In this document: one piece after another, positions 3,953 through 64,000 of the stretch
How positions within the stretch are numbered: the first letter of the stretch is position 1
Layout of the letters: each line of letters opens with the position of its first letter
From: Callorhinchus milii
Taxonomy: Eukaryota
Assembly (NCBI RefSeq): GCF_018977255.1
Contig: NW_024704742.1
Coordinates: forward strand, 82,214,001-82,278,000
Direction of reading: 5' to 3'
Length of the DNA: 64,000 bases
Position numbers and translations under genes: made by a program
Notes under the pieces: model-generated
Database searches by the model: none
Told to the model about the DNA's origin: nothing
Seen by the model: only the letters and a program-made list of their open reading frames with translations

Positions 3953-4713
3953 ACAACAACAACAACTACAAAATTGCATTTGTATAGCACCTTTCATATC
4001 AGGAAAATGTCCCAAGGTGCTGGACAGACAGAGTTTCAGACCCTAGCTGGGGGTCGGGATCAGGGAGGGTGGAGGGCAGGGGGGGAAGCAGGGAGAACGA
4101 AAGCACAATCGAAGAGGAGGGTCTTGAGATGGGTCTTGAAGGTTGCAAGGGAGGGAGCGAGGTGGAGGAAGTGCAGGATGGAGTTCCAGAGGATGGGGGC
4201 AGAGTGGCAGAAGGCCCGCCCGCCAATAGTGGGGCGAGCGAGGCAGGGGACGTGAAGCAGGCCACAGCCCGCTGAGTGGAGGGAGCGAACAGGATGGTAG
4301 GGGGTTAGGAGGTCAGAGAGGTAGTGGGAAGCAAGACCCTGAAGGGCTTTGAAAGTGAGGACCAGGATCTTGAACTGTATCCTCTGTGTGTTGGGAAGCC
4401 AGTGGAGTTGGGCGAGGATGGGGGTGATAGGGTCTCGGAGCCTAGTGCGGGAGAGGACATGGGCTGCAGAGTTCTGGATGATCTGCAGCCTGTGGAGGGA
4501 GGAGTTGAGGAGGCCGACAAGCAGTGAGTTTGCATAGTCGAGCCTCAGTGTAATGAAAACATATATGAGGGTTTCGGTGGCCTGTGGTGTGAGACAAGGG
4601 CGGAGGCGGGCAATGTTGCAGATGTGGGGGAAGGCAGAGCGGGTCATGGCGCCGATGTGGGGTAGAAAGGATAGTTGAGGGTCAAACAAGACCCCAAGGT
4701 TCTGGACTGGCTT
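3953..4713 (-). mobile_element. 5'-truncated L2 LINE 3' fragment
   Basis: ORF 4060..4689 encodes the L2 ORF2 C-terminus (RLDYANSLL..LQIIQNSAA..LHWLP..RIQFKIL); (TTG)n tail. Confidence 0.92.
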
Positions 4714-5425
4714 ACATCAACTATTACATCAGGAGCATGTCTCAAAGCACTTTACAGGATATACTATAAAGTGTAGTGACACTATTTTGTAGGCGAACAT
4801 ACCAAGTGAGTTGAGGCTTTCTATGTTAATATCAGATCACTTTAGAGTATATCATGTGAAGTTCTTTAAGACGTCTTGATGACATGACAAAGTGTTATAT
4901 CAAATGCAAGGATTGTTATTATCATTGCATCCTCACACTATAGTCCAAGAGAATTCCCTGATTAATGATCTATCATTCAACTTCATTCTTTTGGTTACTT
5001 ACTAAAGAAATTGAATTTGTCTTTTTTGTGTGAAAATGTATTTGCAATATATTCTGTGAAGCACTTTGAGGTGTCTCATCAATGTGATAAGGCATTATAT
5101 CAAATGCAAGGATTAGTATTATTACTTATCGGAGGTGTTACCTGTCTTCCCTTTTTTTGCATGCAATGTCAACATCTCTCAGACAACTTCAGCACTGGTC
5201 TAATCCAGGTCACTGCTTCCCTTTGATTTCTCCGAACAAAAAAAATTCTCTGAGCCGAGGCAGAGCATTGCCCAGTGTAGTCATTTGACATTTCTTCCAT
5301 TAACCATTCCTGTGAACTCCCTGAGGGAGACCCATGAGTTTGCTGCTCGATTGACAATTTTGTGATGTGGATTCATGCTCACTGGGGTCTGGCTTGAGAC
5401 ATCGCTCACTGTTCTCAACATCTGT

Positions 5426-5751
5426 GTCCTGTAGCTCAGTGGTTAGAGCATTCGCTTTGCAAGCGAGAGACCTGAGTTCAATTCCAGGCAGGGTGAAACC
5501 TTGGGCAAGTTTCCTTACTCCTCACGCCTAATAATAATCCCTCCAAAACCAAAGATAATAATATATATTGATCATTTTCAATCTACGACTGTTTGTGGGA
5601 CATTGCTGTGCGCAATTGGCTGCCGCGTTCGCCCACAAATATACAGTCAATTCACTTTACAGTGTGTTCTGTGAAGCGCTTTGGGACGTCCTCCCGACGT
5701 GAAAAGCGCTCTATCAAATGCAAGGATTATTATTATTATTATTATTATTAT
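5426..5751 (+). mobile_element. Full-length tRNA(Ala-like)-derived SINE with 7-bp TSD
   Basis: TAGCTCAGTGG A box, GAGTTCAATTC B box, TGC anticodon loop, (ATT)n tail; atctgtg at 5420-5426 and 5750-5756. Confidence 0.95.
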
Positions 5752-21596: not shown

Positions 21597-24500
21597 TTGA
21601 ATCTCTCAGCCTGGACTCACTGGGACTATAACATTGTCCCCCATTCCCCATAATGACCCATTATGGGGAATGACCCAACCATGCCTCACTGACATCCCCC
21701 ACCCCTCCCCCACTGCCACTTGCCGTTCGCTCTTAGTCTCGCATGCGCATTTTGGCTGCTGCCACTGACCCAAGCTGCTTCCCCAAAATGCCCCCATTCC
21801 TATCCTCTATCCACCATTACTTCTGATTGGTCCTCCTCTCCCACCTCCCTCCCCGACTCCTATCTCTGCTCGACTGTCCCACAGCCTCCCTCTGCTCCAG
21901 CCTGCGAATCCTCCCTCGGGCCCACCATGGCAGACGCCGTTGGCTGTCCAACAGCAGCCACTCTGACTGCCCTGTCCCCCATTCTCGCCGCAAGGCTCAC
22001 CAGTCCCTGACCCGGGGGGCCAATCTCTCCTCCCTGATCTACATTCCCACCCTCCCTGTCAATCGCCCCCATTGCCCCCCAAATTCCGCCATCAGCTGTC
22101 CCCTCCGCATCGGGCTACAAAATAACCATTCCCTCTCCAACAAAACACTCACAATCCAAGACCTCATTGTCGATGAATACATTGACATTCTCGCACTCAC
22201 TGAAACCCGGATCGCTCCAGGGAACCCCTTCCCCCTGACAGAGGCCACACCACCTGGCTACACCTTCCATCACATCCCTCGACCTAACCGCTGTGCTGGT
22301 GGTGTGGCTCTTATCTCCCGGCCCCGCTCTGCCTATCTTCTTACTCCTCTGGAACTTTTCCCTCCTTTGAGCACCTTACCCTTTACCACCCCTCCAACCT
22401 TTCCCTCAAAATCCTACTTATCTATTACCACCCCCACCTTCATCCCCGACATCTCCACACTCATATCTTCCCTCTCCCTCTGCTCCAAATGCCTCCTCAT
22501 CCTTGGCGATTTCAACCTCCACTTCACCCCCTTCTGCTCTACCTCTGCTGACTTTTCCTCCCTTATCTACTGCCTCAACCTCTCACTCCACATAACACTC
22601 CAATATCCTCGTCCACAGTCATCCACTTAACCTGGTGATCACTCGTGACCTCACCGTCTCGGACCTCACCATCATCGACAAAACAATCTTGGGCTATCAC
22701 TTCATCTTCCGTAACTCCTCAGTCCCTCTCCCCACCACCACCCAACCCACCTCCATCTCCTACCACTACTGGAAAATATCTCCCCCCCTCCCTCTCGGCT
22801 GCCTTGGAGTCATCTGAACTCATTTGCCTCTGGGCTTCCTCCTATCCTCCTTGATCACTCTTCTCCACAGCTCCCTCTCCTCCACTCTCGATTCCCTCGC
22901 TTCTCTCTCTTACTTAACCGTCTCCTATTCACATAAGTCACCCTGGTACACCAACCACCTCCACTCCCTTAAAGCACAGTTGTGTGTTGCTGAACGTACC
23001 TGGCTCAAATCCAACTTAATGGTCCATCGGCATATCTGACTGGGTCTTATCAAATCCTACCGCTCTGCCCTCGCCTCCACTAAATCGTCTTTCTACTCCA
23101 AGACAATCTTGGAAGCCAAGGACAACTTTCTCCATCAACAACTGGCTTCTCCACCCATCCTCTCATGCCTTGCCCATCCTCACCTTCAATGCCAACTGCG
23201 AGGCGATGCTGGACTTCCTCGAATCGAAGGTTGAGGTGATCCGCTCAGCTACTTTTACCCTTTTGTCTACTACATCCTACCCATCTCCCCCTCCCAACCT
23301 GGCCACTACCCTGGCCTCGACATCTTTGAACCTGTCTCACCCTCCTCTCTCACTATCACTAAAATACGCATGAAATCGACCACCTGCTCCCTTGACCCCA
23401 TCCCTACTCCTCTCCTTACTCTCTAGCTCCACCTCCTTGCTCCTCTACTCACAGACATCATAAACCTCTCCCTGTCCACTGGTACTGTTCCCAACCGATT
23501 AAAAACAGCCATTATCATTCCTATTCTTAAAAAATCCTCCTTGGACCCATCGCCACTCTTAAATTACTGCCCCATCTTCATCCTTCCTTTCCTCTCCAAG
23601 GTCCTGGAATGAATTGTTGCTTCCCAGCTTTGTTCCTTCCTCCCCCGCCACTCCCTTCACGAACCCCTCCAATCGGGTTTCGGTGCCGCCCACAGCACAG
23701 AAAAAAGCCTGGTCAAAGTGACCAATGACATTCTGTCAATCTGCGACCAGAGCTCCCTCTGCCTCCTCGTCCTCCTTGACCTTTCTGCTGCCTTCCACAC
23801 CGTCGTCCACTCTATCCTTATCCACCTCAACCTTCATGGCTGTCCTTGACTGGTTCAGATCATACCTCTCACATTGCCTCCGCTTCATCTCCACAAACAC
23901 TTTTTCCTCTAGCCCCGGAATCGTCTTGAGCAGTGTTGCTCAGAGCTCTGTCCTTGGTCCCCTCCTGTTCAATATCTGTATGCTCCTTCTTGGTGACATC
24001 ATCTGCAGACCCAACTGTACCTACCTGCCTTCACACTTGACTCCAGGACCACTGCTGTATGTCAGACATCAAGTCCTTGATGTGAACTAATTTTCTTCAG
24101 TTGAACGTCAACAAGACAGATGCTCTCCTGATGTGCCTCCACACCTCAGGCACTGACAGCATCACCACCATGGATGCACACTCCACTTTATTACGCCAGT
24201 CTGGAACTGTTGCATGTTGTTTGATCCTCAACTATCCTTTCTACCCGATATCTGTACCATGACCCACTGTGCCTTGCACAACCTCTACAACATCGCCCGG
24301 CTCCGCCACTGTCTCACACCACAGGCTGCCGAAAACTCATACACGCTTTCATTATGTCGAGGCTCGACTATGCAAACTCCTTGCTTGTCGTCTTCCCCAA
24401 CTCCTCCCTCCATAGGCTGCAGATCATCCAGAACTCTGCAGTCCGTGTCCTCTCTCGCACCAGGCTCTGTGTCCCTATCAACCCCATCCTTGCCTGATTC

Positions 24501-24937
24501 CCCTGTCTTCCCATCACACAGAGGATACAGTTCAAGATCCTGGTCCTCACCTTCAAAGCCCTCCATGTTCTTGCTCCCCCCAACGTCTGCGACCTCTTAA
24601 TCCCCTTCCATCCTGCCTGCTTCCTCTGTTCAGCAGGTTCTGGCCTGCTTCACGACCCTGCCTCGCTCGCCCCACCATTGAGAGGTAGGCTTTCTGCCAC
24701 TCTGCCCCCACCCTCTGAAATTCCATCCCACAGTCCCTCTGCCTCGTCCCCTCCCTTGCCTCCTTCAAGACCCACCCTCCTCTTCGACCGTGCTTTCGAT
24801 CGCTCTACTTCTCGGCTTACCCTCCACCCTGCCCGATCCCAACCCCCAGCTCAGGTCAGAAGCTCTGAATGTCTAGCGCCTTGGGACGTCCTCCTGACAT
24901 GAAAGGCACTATCCATATCTAATTTTCTTGTTGTTGT
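21597..24937 (+). mobile_element. L2 LINE with near-complete degenerate ORF2 (APE endonuclease + RT)
   Basis: ORF 21827..22630 has APE motifs (LQN..SL.NK, DILALTET, GGVALI, ILGDFNLH); RT motifs QSGF..HSTE, LLDLSAAF, QSSVLGPLLF; L2 tail; many frameshifts. Confidence 0.93.
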
Positions 24938-29802: not shown

Positions 29803-30123
29803 TAATAACAATAATAATAATCCTTGCATTTGATATAGCGCTTTTCACGTCGGGAGAACGTCCCAAAGCGCTTCACAGAACACACTGTAAAGTAAATTGA
29901 CTGTATATTTGTGGGCGAACGCAGCAGCCAATTGTGCACAGCAATGTCCCACAAACAGTCGTAGATTGAAAATGGCCAATTTAATTATTGTTTTTGGTTT
30001 TGGAGGGATTATTATTAGGCGTGTGGAGTAAGGAAACTTGCCCAAGGTTTCGCCCTGCCTGGAATTGAACTCAGGCCTCTCACTTGCAAAGCGAGTGCTC
30101 TAACCACTGAGCTACAGGACTCC
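29803..30123 (-). mobile_element. Full-length young SINE
   Basis: Reverse complement of the family consensus. Confidence 0.95.
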
Positions 30124-30454: not shown

Positions 30455-30925
30455 ATAGTGGATGACCTTGCACTTCTCTACATTGAACTCCATCTGCCAT
30501 AGCTTTGCCCACTCACTTAATCTGTCTAAGTCCCTTCGTACTTCCTACTCCCATCTACATAACTTATTGAACCTCTTAGTTTAGTGTCATTTGCAAACTT
30601 GGATATGAAACTTTCTAGTCCTTCATCCAAGTCATATATATATGGCAAAAAGATGAAGCCCGAGTACAGACTCCTGGGGGACACCACTTGTCACATCCCG
30701 CCAATCAGAGAACATTCCCTTTATCCCTACTCTCTGTTTCCTGCCTCCCAACCAATTACCAAGCCACATCACAAGGTTACCTCCAACTTCATGTGCTTCC
30801 ATTTTTGCTAGTAATCTTTTGTGTGGAACCTTATCAAATACCTTCTGAAAGTCCATATAAACAGCATGCGTAGACACTGTCTTATCTACCATTTTAGTGA
30901 CCTCCTCAAAAAAAGATATCAGGAA
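30455..30925 (-). mobile_element. CR1 RT fragment
   Basis: ORF 30632..30928: VYMDFQKVFDKVPHKRLL..VTSGVPQESVLG. Confidence 0.9.
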
Positions 30926-31784
30926 CATAAGAGCAAAGCGTCTTCTCCATCAGAACCTGGTGCTCACCTTTCCATGCATTTAAACATTTGCGATCTCAGA
31001 ACTGTTAGTTCCAATCTATAATTAGTTTTGGATGAGGGTAGCAATTGGTATTTTTGTGTATACAAACACCTCTGTAGTTAACTGGTCAAAAAGATAAGAC
31101 ACCAGTGATTAGATACAGCAAAGAAAGCAAACTGTATTTGAGGAAAGAAAAAGAGGCATGTCTGTAACCAATTTATAGCCCATTAATATGCAGTGAGCTT
31201 AAAATTGGGATATTTTACAAGGCAGGCTTAAACACACAAGCAGGATATGTGCATCCTCCTTGGGTTTGCAACCGGTTATCAGCAAACTAGCAAACGTCAA
31301 TCCAAGTGTGTTCTATTACGGAAATGGCACTTGTGGGTTAATGAGGTACTCGAGTCTCTGCCAGGTGGAGCTTCCGGATTTATTATTTAACAGAATATCC
31401 TAATAATGTAATTGTACTTGGTGTATTTTTAATCCTGGTGGGATACAGGAGAAATAAAAAAACCTAGTGAAAATAGTCAAGGAAAAGCTGAGGAAAGGGT
31501 ACGTAATCTTCTTGAGAAATCTGATTGTTTTCTGGGAGTGTTGATACCATGAGAGCATAATTACTGCACTTTTCACCTATATAAGGTTTTGAATCATTTA
31601 TAGAGTCTGATGCTTTATTTAGCTTGTGTGCCGGACAACATGAAACCGGTTTGCTGCATGGTTCATTGCTTTCCATTGTTTCAGAGAATGACAGAACATA
31701 TACAGGGGCCTGTTTAAACCAGCTGAGAGCTCCTACAATATCCCTAGTGATTAAAAGACATTGCCCGGTGCAACAATAGACTAT

Positions 31785-36388: not shown

Positions 36389-37435
36389 CTATGTCCCACC
36401 CTGAACCACGAATGTAATGGTTGTTCATAAGATTACATTCTCAGCAGCAGAATCAAACAACTTCATAGGTGCAATAGCTCTATAGTTTTGTTATAGAAAG
36501 GCTTACAGATTTGAATTTTAATTAAGCAGCAACATAGAAAAATGCAGTTGGTAGATTATTGTTTAAACAAACACATGTTTGCAATATCTAACCTAATAGT
36601 GTGAACAAATGGCTATCTTGGTGTGAAAAGGACCCATAGTACCATGTGTAGCTATGGTAGTTTGACATTTAAATTGGTCTATCACCTTGAGTTATCTCTT
36701 GGAAAATTGATTGTGAAAGGACACAAAGCTTGGAATTGGGATGAGTTCATTCCTGTGTATGTGCTCTTATCAGCCAGAAGCATTGAATTAAGAAGATGCA
36801 GCACACATGCTGGTTGTTAGTGAGTTGGCTTTGGTACTGCCTGGATGTTGTGGAGGAAGTAATGTACAGAGCTGATGGAAGGACCAGATGTCATTCCTGC
36901 GTGCATGCTGTTAGACATCATAATTTCAAATGCATGGCAGGGAAAATGAATAAATAACTTCACGTGTAAAGGGCTGCTGTGGGTGAGAGATAATCCAGGA
37001 GAACAGTTCAAATCACTATCATTTTCCAGTTGATTATGGTCATTATGCATTTTTTAAAAAAAGGATCTTACTCCAAGTTCTGAAGGTCAAAAAATGATTC
37101 TGTGGACAAATACTTGCTTATCTGCCGAGCATCAGTCCATGAAATAGGTTACGGCTCATATTGGGATATGAGAGGAATGCTGAACGAATGACTTAGCCAG
37201 TGAATATAAACACAACGTAATTTGTTGTGTTGCTTCACATTGAACCAAGTTACTTGGGTTGTACTTGGAGAAATAGATCTTTTTTTTAAAACAAAAATCC
37301 ATATTGCTACCTCAGCGCAATTTCAGTAATTATCAGACCGCTGACAATGTGCATTGAAGAGCAGATGAATTTCACATGTGAATCATTGGGTTTTATTTGT
37401 GTATGGGAACACAGAGAGCTGAGAAGTAGTTTTAA

Positions 37436-38068
37436 AGGAACAAAATGAGAAATCACTGGGAACACTCAGCAGGTCAGGCAGAATCTATGGAGAAAGTAAA
37501 GTGAGTTAATGTTTCGGGTCCACTACCCTTCATCAGAACTGGGGCATTTGGGAAGGGGGAGAGGCTTTTAAGGGATAACAGAGAGTGGGGAGGCAGGGCA
37601 AGGAAGAAAATGAGATAGAGGACAGGGAATGATGGGTTAAAGAGGTGTTAATTATGCAAAACAAAGGGGGGATTGCAACAAAGCAGGGGAATAGAGGTAT
37701 TAATAATAATACAAAACAAAATTGGGGGGGAGTGAGGTGGGGGGAATGCAACAAAATAGGCAGACCAGAGAGAGAACCGGTGTGTCTGGGACCCAGATGA
37801 TGTGGAAATGGTCACAGAAGAGGGGGAGGGGGAAGGTATTGAAATCAATATTGAGGCCAGAGGGCTGTAACAGCTCACCTTCCCCCTCCCCCTCTTCTGT
37901 GATCATTTCGGTCCCTATCAGATAAATGGTTCCTCGAGCTTGCGCTGTGACTCATTGGAACAAAGTAGGAGACCATGGATGGAGAGGTCAGAGAGTGAGT
38001 GGGAAGGAGTGTTGGAAGTAGTTTTAAAGTGCTTGAATTATTATTTCTAATGAACAGCAACTGGGAGA
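37436..38068 (-). mobile_element. Penelope-like element 3' fragment (GIY-YIG C-terminus plus terminal repeat)
   Basis: Minus-strand translation gives LPVAVH..SHSLSDLSIHGLLLCSNESQRKLEEP..LQPSGLNIDFNTF, typical of the PLE endonuclease end, followed by a hammerhead motif. Confidence 0.8.
37504..37540 (-). ncRNA. Minimal type I hammerhead ribozyme motif
   Basis: AGUU-CUGAUGA-A-GGGU(AGUGG)ACCC-GAAAC-AUU-AACU: core, stem I and stem II intact; palindromic stem III has a G>A change. Confidence 0.7.
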
Positions 38069-40206: not shown

Positions 40207-40525
40207 TAATAATAATAATAATGATCCTTGCATTTGATATAGTGCTTTTCACGTCGGGAGGACGTCCAAAAGCGCTTCACAGAACACACTGTAAAGTGAA
40301 TTGACTGTATATTTGTGGGCAAACGCGGCAGCCAATTGCGCACAGCAATGTCCCACAAACAGTCGTAGATTGAAAATGACCAATTTATTATTGTTTTGGT
40401 TTTGGAGGGATTATTATCAGGTGTGTGGAGTAAGGAAACTTGCCCAAGGTTTCTCCCTGCCTGGAATTGAACTCAGGTCTCTCGCTTGCACAGCGAGTGC
40501 TCTAACCACTGAGCTACAGGACTCC
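40207..40525 (-). mobile_element. Full-length young SINE
   Basis: Reverse complement of the family consensus. Confidence 0.95.
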
Positions 40526-41365: not shown

Positions 41366-41978
41366 CAGTAAATCTTGTCACCTGCTTTGAAATGTACCCC
41401 TGATGTCAAAGGCACTATATCAAACGTAAGGATTATTATACTATTATTGTTTCAAATAAATATATTTGTATAGTAAATAACTGGCAAGTTGGTGGTGAAT
41501 TTACCAATGTAAATGAGTTGAACAGGGTGATGAGGGGTAAATCACATCAGGAGGATGTCACAATGTGCTTCACAGGAGTTTATGTAAAGTGTTGTGACTG
41601 TATATCTTTTTGCCAAACAAGGCAGACAAATTGTGTGCAGCAAAATCTCATCTACAACTACGAAAGTGTTTTGCCTTATTAGGAACAGAGTCTACCAATG
41701 ATTTAGTTGAACTATATCCTGCCTTAAATCTGTCAGAAGTTGCTCAATAATTCTGATGGATAAATTTGTAATACAGTATTGATCAGTGGTTTGCTCAACA
41801 GCCCAGCCTGATTTGCTAAACAGTGAAAGTCCTGAGTATAGCATGTGTGTGGTCGTTCACCTTCATTCTCATATCCTCCACACACTGAAGGGTTAGGTCC
41901 AGTTAGACTATTGGGAATGCCATACAGACACTTCCCCTTTACACTTCCTGTTACATACTAATAACCGTTTATAAGCCC

Positions 41979-42118
41979 AAAACACAAAATACTGCAAATG
42001 CTGGAAATCTGAAACAAAAACAGAGAGAGCTGGGAAAATTCAACAGGTCAGGCAGCATCTGTGGAGAAAGGAAAGTGATTCAACGTTTCGGGTTCACGAC
42101 TCTTCATCAGAAGCCCTT
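41979..42118 (-). mobile_element. 140-bp Penelope-derived non-autonomous element with hammerhead motif and 13-bp TSD
   Basis: Homologous to 37436-37540; CUGAUGA..GAAACGUU on minus; cgtttataagccc at 41966-41978 and 42119-42131. Confidence 0.8.
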
Positions 42119-42224
42119 CGTTTATAAGCCCGATTAGTATGATAGAGGAGAACAGTCTTATTCTCCTCAAAACAGCCACAAAATTATATAGGGACCTTTG
42201 AGCAGGCATTTAAACTATAAGAAG

Positions 42225-44405: not shown

Positions 44406-46104
44406 AATTATTGCTCTATAAAAGAGCAAATAAAATAACAAGTACTAGCATAAATTTTAATAAAGTCAATTGTTGCAATGAAAAACAATCTTACACCTCC
44501 AAACGTTTTATACAATTATGCTAACTATTGGAGATAATTTAGTAATTCAGTCAATACAATTTTACTCATGAGATTGACATAATACTCAAAGTTAAATGCA
44601 GGAGAGCATCACACTCCAAGTTCCTTCTCAGACATAGCATGGAAAAAGTTACTGTAACTTGTAACTTTCTAGACTTCTAGTAAAAAAGGCACACAAGGGA
44701 GTTTTATTATTTTCTGTCCTCGCACATTTAACTGAGGTTAAAGGACAGCATTGCATGCAAAACGAGTTGTTTGACAGGTACATGATGTGCAGATGCTGTG
44801 CTGAATGGCAACTATTTACTTATGTTGATTTAAGGAAATGTATTGTATGGAATTGTCAAGATTTACAGCAAAGACAATAAGGACAAAAGTGTCGTCACCT
44901 TATTATTGACATGGTCTTTACAGCATGACTTCTTCAGTTCCCCAAGGTGCACCAGATAGCTTGGAAATGTTCTTATTAATTCACAAGGTCTCGACACATT
45001 TGTAATTTATGATTTGTATTTAGATAAGGGTAAGCAGACTGATGTGAGGCCTTCATCATTCATGCTATATAAGGACAGAAAATAAATGTGGTTTGTCCCT
45101 TGACTGTGACAGAATTACCTCTCTAAAAGGAATTGACTGACCTTTGAATGTCACCAAAAATGCCTAATGGAAACGGAAATGAAAAAAGTATGGTTATCAG
45201 ATGTTGTCGCCAGATCATATTTTATAAGCAAATGTCACTCAATGAAGTATTGACACTGAAATCTCACCTAATTTACTAACCAAGGCAGTGGTAGTCACAT
45301 TACTAACATAAAGAACAGATGGGAGATCTAATGCATCTTAAAATTATTTCTTCAAACGTTTATTTATTATGCACTGTTCATAGTGTTGATTTAAGCATTA
45401 AAACTAAGCCAATACAAATCACCTTGCTGTCTGTGCAGTGCTGTAAGTGGGGGAGAGAGTCGGCCCTATCTGATATATTGCTATGCTCTGCACTTTGTGC
45501 ACTAGCAATTTTTCTTTAGGATAAGAATCTGTTTTCAAACTTAGTGCTCATTGAGCATTGCACCAGCTGCTGCACTAAACCCCGTTCACCTCAGCTGCGG
45601 CTTGCAATTTCTAAAAATATTACCATTGGCAGATACATTTTTAAAAAAATAACTCCACCAACCAACTTTAATTTTGCACTGAGGTAACGTCTCTTATGTA
45701 GAATAAATGTTTCGAAGCTCTTAAGCATTGTGGATCAGGTTATTTGGTTTGAGACAAATTGACCTAAAGCCATTAAACGTGGAGCCAGAAAGCAACTTTA
45801 ATGACCCTCTTTCCCAGTGGTAATTTAACTCCAGTTTCAAAAATTAATATTGATTAAGTCTCTTCGACCAATACAACACATAAAAGCATCTGGATTCATG
45901 CTATTCATTTCTTTATTTAGTCCTGTACAAGTTACGTACTATTAAGCTTGAAAAGCTTCCAATGTTGTACGAAGCAGGAGTTTCCCATCTTCATCATATC
46001 CCTATTCAATTTCTAAGAATTATCTCGAACCTTCCTTGTTTTTCAAGCTTCCTTCACGCTGTGGAAGTGTTACATTGATAAGACCCCCAATTAACCATCT
46101 CCTC

Positions 46105-46225
46105 AAAAGGCAAAATACTGCAGATGCTGGAAATCTGAAATATAAACACTCAGCAGGTCAGATAGCATCTATGCTGAGAGGAAAGGGAGTTAACGATTCA
46201 GGTCAAAACATTAACTCACGTTAAC
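46105..46225 (-). mobile_element. Penelope-like terminal repeat remnant
   Basis: caaaatactgcagatgctggaaatctgaaa..ctcagcaggtca..gagttaacg matches 41979-42090; hammerhead core lost. Confidence 0.75.
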
Positions 46226-46472
46226 CTTCTCCTGACTGAATTTCCTCTGATTTATCTTCACTCTATCTTCCTTCTCCCTTAAATGCATAAAGCTTCCTGT
46301 AGTTGAGCTTCCTCTAGTTGGACGACCCTTCAAATCATCTTCACCACTGAAAGCATTTCATTGATACAGCAGGTGCCTACTTCCTCCACTTTGCAGTTCA
46401 ACACTTTCAAATGAAACCGTGCAAGCATGAAACTGTGGAGTGGTCACAAATTAATAATATAAAATATTAATA

Positions 46473-57569: not shown

Positions 57570-57891
57570 GAATCCTGTAGCTCAGTGGTTAGAGCACTCG
57601 CTTTGCAAGTGAGAGACCTGAGTTCAATTCCAGGCAGAGGGCGAAACCTTGGGCAAGTTTTCTTACTCCACACGCCTAATAATAATCCCTCCAAAAACAC
57701 CAAAAACAAAAATAAATTGGTCATTTTCAATCTACGACTGTTTGTGGGACATTGCTGTGCGCAATTGGCTGCCGCGTTCGCCCACAAATATACAGTCAAT
57801 TCACTTTACAGTGTGTTCTGTGAAGCGCTTTGGGACGTCCTCCCGTTGTGAAAGGCGATATATCAAATGCAAGGATTATTATTATTACTAT
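57570..57891 (+). mobile_element. Full-length young SINE
   Basis: Matches 5426-5751. Confidence 0.95.
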
Positions 57892-60431: not shown

Positions 60432-60715
60432 GGAGTCCTGTAGCTCAGTGGTTAGAGCACTCGCTTTTCAAGCGAGAGACCTGAGTTCAATTCCAGGCAG
60501 GGCGAAAGCTTGGGCAATTTTCCTTACTCCACACGTCTAATAATAATTTTCAATCCATGACTGTTTGTGAAACATTAATGTGCGCAATTGGCTGCTGTGT
60601 TCGCCCACAAATATACAGTCAATTCACTTTACAGTATATTCTGTGAAGCGCTTTGGGACGTCTAGAAGACGTGAAAAGCGCTATATCAAATGCAAGGATT
60701 ATTATTATTATTATT
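60432..60715 (+). mobile_element. Young SINE with short internal deletion, tagaa loop variant
   Basis: Complete head and tail; lacks the ccctccaaaacc..ggtc segment. Confidence 0.93.
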
Positions 60716-63825: not shown

Positions 63826-64000
63826 GGAGTCCTGTAGCTCAGTGGTTAGCGCACTCACCTCGCAAGCGAGAGACCTGGGTTTGATTCCTGGCAGGGTGAA
63901 ACCATGGGCAAATTTCCGTACTCCACAAATCTGATAATAATCCCTCAAGATGAAAAAAACAATAAAATTTGGTCACTCAATCCACGACTGTTTGTGGGAC
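63826..64000 (+). mobile_element. Young SINE, cut by the window end
   Basis: ggagtcctgtagctcagtgg head and body. Confidence 0.9.

Follow-up and report, generated by a model that had tools for sequence, protein, structure and literature searches.

Results

A truncated Penelope-like element with a hammerhead motif at its 3′ end

The window, by which we mean the whole 64,000-nt stretch of DNA that was analysed, carries on its minus strand a 577-bp insertion (copy A) bounded by an exact 15-bp direct repeat. Copy A is a 5′-truncated Penelope-like element (PLE) composed of an endonuclease C-terminus, a pyrimidine-rich spacer, a hammerhead motif and a tailless 3′ end. The features of the insertion are:

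37438-38014, minus strand: copy A insertion, 577 bp, 5′-truncated PLE
37423-37437: left target-site duplication of copy A, 15 bp, exact repeat
38015-38029: right target-site duplication of copy A, 15 bp, exact repeat
37930-38013, minus strand: GIY-YIG endonuclease C-terminal remnant, piece 1, 28 codons, from tblastn and profile matches
37871-37909: 39-nt insert separating the two remnant pieces
37832-37870, minus strand: GIY-YIG remnant, piece 2, ending in a P-x-G-L-N motif and out of frame with piece 1

The boundaries were supported in three ways. An exact 15-bp duplication has a rough chance of 4e-4 in the grid searched, the depth of sequencing-run contigs steps up and down in the bins containing both ends, and the protein match starts at 38013, one base inside the boundary. 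No contig of the empty site was found among the 15 of 96 joints listed.

Identity of the endonuclease remnant was established with both pieces together. Piece 1 alone matched 5 of 40 PLE proteins by tblastn (E 0.002-0.05). Direct searches with it for a PLE protein returned nothing in Pfam or by word search and nothing usable in the ESM Atlas; the PDB gave only a match at E 1.7, and the representative proteins gave a single match in seven stretches, which looks repetitive and is no PLE. As a reference we used a 595-aa ORF from a metagenome contig (L032), whose own matches to RVT_1 and GIY-YIG are weak and below curated cut-offs, and 40 relatives fetched with it. In a first profile, built from the last 190 residues of 32 of these 40, piece 1 was the top match in the window at 10.0 bits, while 10 shuffles reached at most 6.2. 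A tighter trimmed profile of the 25 proteins retaining the terminal motif scored piece 1 alone at 6.9 bits, which 4 of 20 shuffles equalled, so that piece 1 alone is not secure. With both pieces joined by X across the break (the last 41 residues), the score rose to 26.5 bits, versus at most 8.0 bits outside the locus when joins of the same geometry were scored at all 127,600 positions, and the peak fell at 38013. This difference, with its peak at the boundary, identifies the remnant as the end of a PLE endonuclease cut at the insertion edge. The sequence-only reading, which had placed the hammerhead downstream of a Penelope GIY-YIG remnant, was thus correct on this point, the motif lying 296 nt behind the end motif of the remnant.

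The GIY and YIG motifs themselves were lost to the 5′ truncation, as were the reverse transcriptase (RT) and CCHH region beyond 38014; a search for PLE RT gave no match in the window. The remnant aligned to three of four ORFs with a CX2-5CxxC linker (E 2e-7 to 2e-3) and to none of four ORFs whose C-terminus is of a different kind (best E 17). Its source was probably an endonuclease-bearing PLE of Neptune/Nematis type, a clade assignment drawn from 41 residues, with the linker itself absent here.

The break in the remnant consists of the 39-nt insert and a short loss. Within the insert, 37877-37909 repeats the 33 nt of 37805-37837 in reverse orientation at 97% identity, and a hairpin results. 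Contigs in three of four runs skip 37871-37928, and the listed ones of two runs have 26 other letters there. The hairpin therefore appears to be particular to copy A and, as other copies lack the inverted duplication, looks like a one-off template switch rather than a miRNA. The miRNA-like Rfam matches at 37785-37923 were rejected, as all fall below the gathering score and arise from this duplication.

Layout of the hammerhead motif

The quoted minus-strand sequence is present at 37540-37504 with its stems and boxes as described by the sequence-only reading. This minimal type I hammerhead motif of copy A (37504-37540, minus strand, read from 37540 to 37504) is laid out as follows:

37540-37537, minus strand: helix I, 5′ strand
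37536-37530, minus strand: core, C3-A9
37529, minus strand: extra A after A9, between positions 9 and 10.1
37528-37525 with 37519-37516, minus strand: helix II, 4 bp, with a 5-nt loop
37515-37512, minus strand: G12-A15.1 (GAAA)
37511, 37510, 37509 and 37508, minus strand: C15.2, A16.2, U16.1 and U17
37508/37507, minus strand: predicted scissile bond
37507-37504, minus strand: helix I, 3′ strand, 4 bp

Both the CUGANGA and the GAAA boxes are intact, helices I and II each have 4 bp, and helix II is closed by G10.1-C11.1 (G37528-C37516). The cleavage triplet is AUU, or GUU in a second copy described below (copy B), and both conform to NUH. The palindromic 15.2-16.2 pair through which two motifs would form an intermolecular helix III is absent from copy A, which has C-A and hence the strand ACAU, which is not self-complementary. 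Self-complementarity in helix III is confined to ACGU (A15.1-U16.1); in AACGUU, the first letter is A14 and the last is U17. Predicted as a monomer, the hammerhead fold has a probability of 0.024 for copy A and 4e-10 for copy B.

Taken alone, the bare core pattern is weak evidence, since its two matches in the window (0.39 expected) were reached by 5 of 100 shuffles. Nor did Rfam recognize the motif: a search of the window gave 25 matches at E ≤ 1, with hammerhead families contributing none. Rfam hammerhead models expect a helix III. As Rfam misses the motif entirely, such copies stay unannotated. Both results would suit a chance resemblance within an ordinary repeat. Against this, the helices, the extra base, G10.1-C11.1 and NUH are all in register, and at the usual location of the PLE motif, which leaves coincidence barely credible.

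A covariance model from metagenome motifs

As a yardstick, metagenome contigs were scanned with a short core pattern that leaves out helix I, giving at least 121 loci. Helix I of at least 3 bp was present in 57% of 100 distinct flank pairs, versus 6.7% for cross-paired flanks; many of these loci are kin, so the pairings do not count as independent events. From 110 distinct motifs, 52 passed a paired-stem filter and 35 of these were hand-picked, aligned and used for a covariance model. In the motif scan that the sequence-only reading had proposed, this model ranked copy A first in the window (29.7 bits, E 2.4e-5) and copy B second (15.2 bits, E 0.17, no helix aligned), with the best remaining match at 11.7 bits. 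This ranking is circular in part: the copy A motif served as template for the pattern that fetched the loci, and a stem filter followed.

No close relative of the copy A family was present among the fetched loci, as blastn of L001-L130 against copy A gave no match at E 0.01. DNA patterns specific to the family had no match in metagenomes, none in viral contigs and three in prokaryotic genomes; a looser pattern found six viral loci. The order of endonuclease end, spacer and same-strand motif recurs in L032, L085 and L020, with spacings of 132, 115 and 66 nt.

Several of these loci are of separate interest. L032:1060-3609 is a near-complete PLE in a metagenome contig, with a 595-aa RT-endonuclease frame flanked by an opposite-strand hammerhead upstream and a same-strand hammerhead 132 nt downstream. 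In one metagenome PLE family (L028, L048 and L083) the open frame extends into the hammerhead; the Neptune-like type has a spacer of 66-296 nt. Viral and bacterial contigs L001, L005, L006, L007 and L009 contain hammerhead-like cores in which helix II is paired; their sequences are not related to the copy A family. These are possibly genuine phage or bacterial hammerheads.

Related copies in the window

Two further loci of the family were found:

41979-42118, minus strand: copy B, solo 3′ end, 140 bp, between 13-bp direct repeats (41966-41978 and 42119-42131)
about 46100-46240: copy C, head-to-head pair of truncated ends, without a CUGANGA box

Copy B lies on the same strand as copy A, 4,574 nt away, and is 82% identical to it over 100 nt, with its core at 42110-42082. 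It begins 8 nt before C3 and extends 33 nt (a tail) beyond the 3′ end of copy A. Its core boxes and ACGU are intact. It is damaged elsewhere, with helix II mismatched at two of five positions and helix I reduced to 2 bp. The sequence-only reading had this sister copy keeping a palindromic stem III; this holds for ACGU, while the AACGUU that it named is too wide, as its outer letters belong to A14 and U17.

Of the 8 nt that precede C3 in copy B (42111-42118), six match the beginning of the target-site duplication of this copy. The 5′ strand of its helix I may thus be target-derived, through microhomology or re-copying at the 5′ junction. At its 3′ end (41979-42030, minus strand), a pyrimidine tract is followed by CAG twice, which is splice-acceptor-like by sequence. 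PLE pLTRs are known to hold introns.

In copy C, the minus-strand piece starts in the 3′ strand of helix II, has a tail similar to that of copy B and a changed A14, whereas the short plus-strand piece runs from about 46205 and starts near G12. No convincing target-site duplication was found for copy C. The window thus holds three loci, each single, and both core boxes occur only in A and B. The count of three to four related remnants in the sequence-only reading is corrected to these three loci, C being in two pieces. A DNA profile of copies A, B and C found no further copy in the window at E < 0.1, and no tandem array of the motif is present there. A near match at 4309-4331 was rejected as part of another element, one with an ORF that resembles a LINE end, presumably of L2/CR1 type.

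About 27% of the window is self-repeated. It contains LINE remnants in 21827-24937 (an AP-type endonuclease at 21827-22627 and an RT piece at 23613-23846, both plus strand), a LINE RT piece at 30635-30949 (minus strand) and a 218-aa ORF in 4060-4716, which we take to be an L2/CR1-type 3′ end. Eight tRNA-like matches (2445-2516, 2797-2868, 5425-5496, 30050-30121, 40456-40520, 57575-57637, 60434-60505 and 63828-63899) stand at the heads of dispersed repeats and are most likely tRNA-derived SINEs.

Variation of the family in sequencing-run contigs

Contigs of four sequencing runs were aligned at 80% likeness to a 1,151-bp stretch around copy A. The runs gave 5,810 (X1), 335, 1,629 and 325 contig pieces, nearly all inside the copy A insert. 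The copy A family is plainly very abundant, though summed contig depth is no copy number. No RNA run was listed as containing the locus; X7 and X12 are RNA runs by a tentative label only, and contigs preserve neither transcript ends nor strand. With 5,810 pieces in X1 and two window copies bearing target-site duplications, the proposal of a family dispersed in this genome was borne out. To call that family self-cleaving, as the sequence-only reading did, overstates the case.

Percentages below are shares of depth in X1, X7 and X12, in that order. Run X6 was left out: C>T and G>A dominate among its changes, which suggests a base-converted library, and G at 16.2 there is 0.3%. The variant tables listed 40 of 124 rows, and their letters are not linkable within one copy. 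No invariant core position figures among those 40 rows. With the majority letter at 37524, helix II regains its fifth pair (89%, 84% and 55%), and with that at 37507, U-G replaces U-A as the first pair of helix I (78%, 81% and 53%). Position N7 (37532) varies (48%, 67% and 62%), and C11.1 is replaced by U in 17%, 25% and 46%. One loose-end consensus has A10.1, which with U11.1 would be a compensatory pair if the two were linked in one copy. As N7, 11.1 and the fifth helix II pair are CpG sites, decay explains part of this variation.

The palindromic state, G at 16.2, accounts for 33%, 46% and 39% of depth. A16.2 is therefore the majority state among contigs and may not be a private mutation of copy A. 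Instead, it could have been inherited from the source element, with a non-self-complementary subfamily having spread and dimer cleavage being dispensable for mobility or the C-A pair tolerated. In favor of such inheritance, A16.2 has a share of about 54-67% in X1, X7 and X12 and is found in the inverted piece of copy C, and the opposite CpG change (37511) is absent among the 40 of 124 variant rows listed. The mutant insertion data from Anolis cited in the next section point the same way. However, 16.2 is a CpG site in CpG-depleted sequence (observed/expected 0.32 in the window), and the other CpG sites of the motif (37516, 37524 and 37532) vary alike. The contigs were chosen for likeness to copy A, which biases 16.2 toward the copy A letter, and the comparison covers only the 40 of 124 variant rows listed. 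Among the published alignment rows examined, 15.2/16.2 is self-complementary (PMC4209133). On balance, we regard inheritance of A16.2 as distinctly unlikely and favor decay within copy A, in keeping with the original suggestion that a CpG mutation, here the one leaving C-A at 15.2/16.2 in the helix III site, probably impaired this copy.

From 37532 to 37548 depth drops about six-fold. A consensus of 61 loose-end records departs from the copy A sequence immediately past the 5′ strand of helix I. These observations raise the possibility that the short copies are not random 5′ truncations of a complete PLE but belong to a non-autonomous family that begins with the hammerhead and is moved in trans, in the manner of SINEs or retrozymes. 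Such a family would be compatible with a PLE origin of the motif. Copy B, beginning 8 nt before C3 with a 13-bp duplication of its own, would be such a copy, and solo pLTRs are described as acting in cis in rotifer PLEs (PMC3846280). Yet copy A continues into the endonuclease, the three loci begin at four different places, and the window is without a tandem array. The depth drop may also reflect a poorly conserved pyrimidine-rich spacer, and summed depth again gives no copy number. Across the scissile bond, depth changes without a sharp step (40.7k at 37507 versus 34.7k at 37510), which speaks against such a family and leaves copying from a 3′ cleavage product, also considered, unsupported. 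A separate family of this kind is unlikely, though somewhat less so than inheritance of A16.2.

A combined scenario, in which a subfamily with the ACAU junction was amplified to high copy and many insertions start exactly at the 5′ edge of the ribozyme, also seems improbable. If it were true, this genome would be a natural experiment on whether cleavage by the PLE hammerhead matters for transposition in vivo; alternatively, the folded motif might merely stop reverse transcriptase and so set the 5′ ends of short copies.

Helix III pairing and the likely inactivity of copy A

The usual 15.2-16.2 pair of hammerheads is C-G, with U-A as a variant (PMC1636495). Metazoan minimal hammerheads have no built-in helix III; one motif alone showed no cleavage, while dimers and trimers cleaved weakly (PMC4209133). 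The motif of an Anolis element cleaved only with the element's own protein, uncleaved RNA was the main template, and ribozyme mutants still inserted in vitro, at a level that was not reduced (PMC11167929).

Against this background, a copy A dimer would have mismatches at two of four helix III positions, and an A/B pair at one of four (A-C). By eye, helix I formed across A and B contains a G-A mismatch. Since the helices of copy B are broken, A and B do not form a working pair. The claim that the two copies together rebuild an intact motif therefore applies to the ancestral layout only, as the A/B combination keeps its A-C mismatch.

Could copy A nevertheless still cut a host transcript, as an active or co-opted motif, whether unaided, paired with copy B or assisted by a PLE protein supplied in trans? 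Every core base, helix I and helix II are intact, copy B is on the same strand, and one of the two A/B junctions retains A-U and C-G. On the other side stand the helix III mismatches, the broken helices of copy B and the silence of a lone minimal motif in PMC4209133. In addition, the 217 unique-sequence ORFs of at least 55 aa in the window matched LINE domains only and none from a host gene, in a search that short exons would escape; nothing thus points to a transcript for copy A to cut. Activity of this kind is very improbable. As its family fits the PLE minimal hammerhead and copy A is without the palindrome, copy A is better described as a defective member.

Our preferred reading, to which we assign a probability of roughly 0.88, is that the motif is the known PLE minimal type I hammerhead in the 3′-end pLTR of an endonuclease-bearing PLE, and that copy A is inert. 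Where an element is active, helix III would form between the ACGU strands of two motifs carried by one partial-tandem transcript, and cleavage after GUH would proceed at a low rate, probably helped by the protein of the element (PMC4209133, PMC11167929). Copy A probably arose by target-primed reverse transcription from the 3′ end of the element at a staggered nick in A+T-rich DNA. Reverse transcription would have ended after 577 nt, giving the 15-bp duplication. As copy A contains an uncleaved motif, it would have been copied from uncleaved RNA. Neutral decay would then account for A16.2, by CpG deamination, and for loss of the fifth helix II pair, and further decay for the frameshift and 39-nt insert in the endonuclease. 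Without an intact partner nearby, copy A is most likely inert.

Comparison with known systems

Minimal hammerheads in the pLTRs of metazoan PLEs were described in 2014 by Cervera and De la Pena (PMC4209133). The arrangement is thus known, and copy A, as a decayed copy at a single locus, matters little. The family is modestly useful: it offers many natural examples of PLE hammerheads from a lineage seemingly unlisted in the 2014 alignment, and its copy ages, 5′ ends and CpG states could show whether selection acts on cleavage. Supplement file 2 of PMC4209133 nowhere mentions shark, Callorhinchus, milii or Leucoraja, so the copy A family may be missing from that list. Within the accessible literature no paper treats this particular family, though Repbase, Dfam or paper supplements may already name it.

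Copy A matches the published consensus row of PMC4209133. Shared features are the type I fold without a helix III loop, GAAA, NUH, a short helix I, and CUGANGA with one extra base followed by G10.1-C11.1; according to that paper, the extra base after A9 and G10.1-C11.1 lie outside its descriptor. Also shared are the pLTR position and mostly single, dispersed copies tied to truncated elements, of which coelacanth and Xenopus have thousands per genome (PMC4209133). Unlike those motifs, helix II here is at the short end (4 bp in copy A, 5 in the family majority), and copy A has lost the palindromic 15.2-16.2.

Non-LTR retrozymes also carry a type I hammerhead, and their origin from PLE pLTRs has been proposed (PMC7229834, bioRxiv 10.64898/2026.07.22.740005); they are reported from one chondrichthyan (bioRxiv 10.64898/2026.07.22.740005). 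Retrozymes are tandem repeats with a motif per unit, in contrast to the window copies, which are single and dispersed, and to copy A in particular, which keeps coding sequence. The tandem repeat with a hammerhead per unit that defines non-LTR retrozymes does not occur within the window.

The Poseidon element PAc of Anolis carolinensis (Frangieh et al. 2024, PMC11167929) likewise has hammerhead stems I and II in its pLTR, an A+T-rich target and uncleaved RNA as template, the last of which we infer for copy A. An optional 30-40-bp tail (PMC11167929, PMC8557442) corresponds to the 33 nt by which copy B exceeds copy A. In contrast to copy A, PAc is an intact element of the Poseidon clade with measured, protein-assisted cleavage (PMC11167929). 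The endonuclease end of copy A, known here from sequence, instead resembles proteins with the CX2-5CxxC linker, which is tied to Neptune and Nematis (PMC8557442). With PLEs of that type, copy A shares a C-terminal GIY-YIG, 5′ truncation and a one-sided tail (PMC8557442, PMC3846280), and the adjacent inverted truncated copy, here copy C, is a PLE trait as well (PMC8557442, PMC3846280, PMC11167929). Target-site duplications of variable length are another common property (PMC8557442, PMC3846280), those found here (13 and 15 bp) exceeding the 8-10 bp given for the elements of rotifers.
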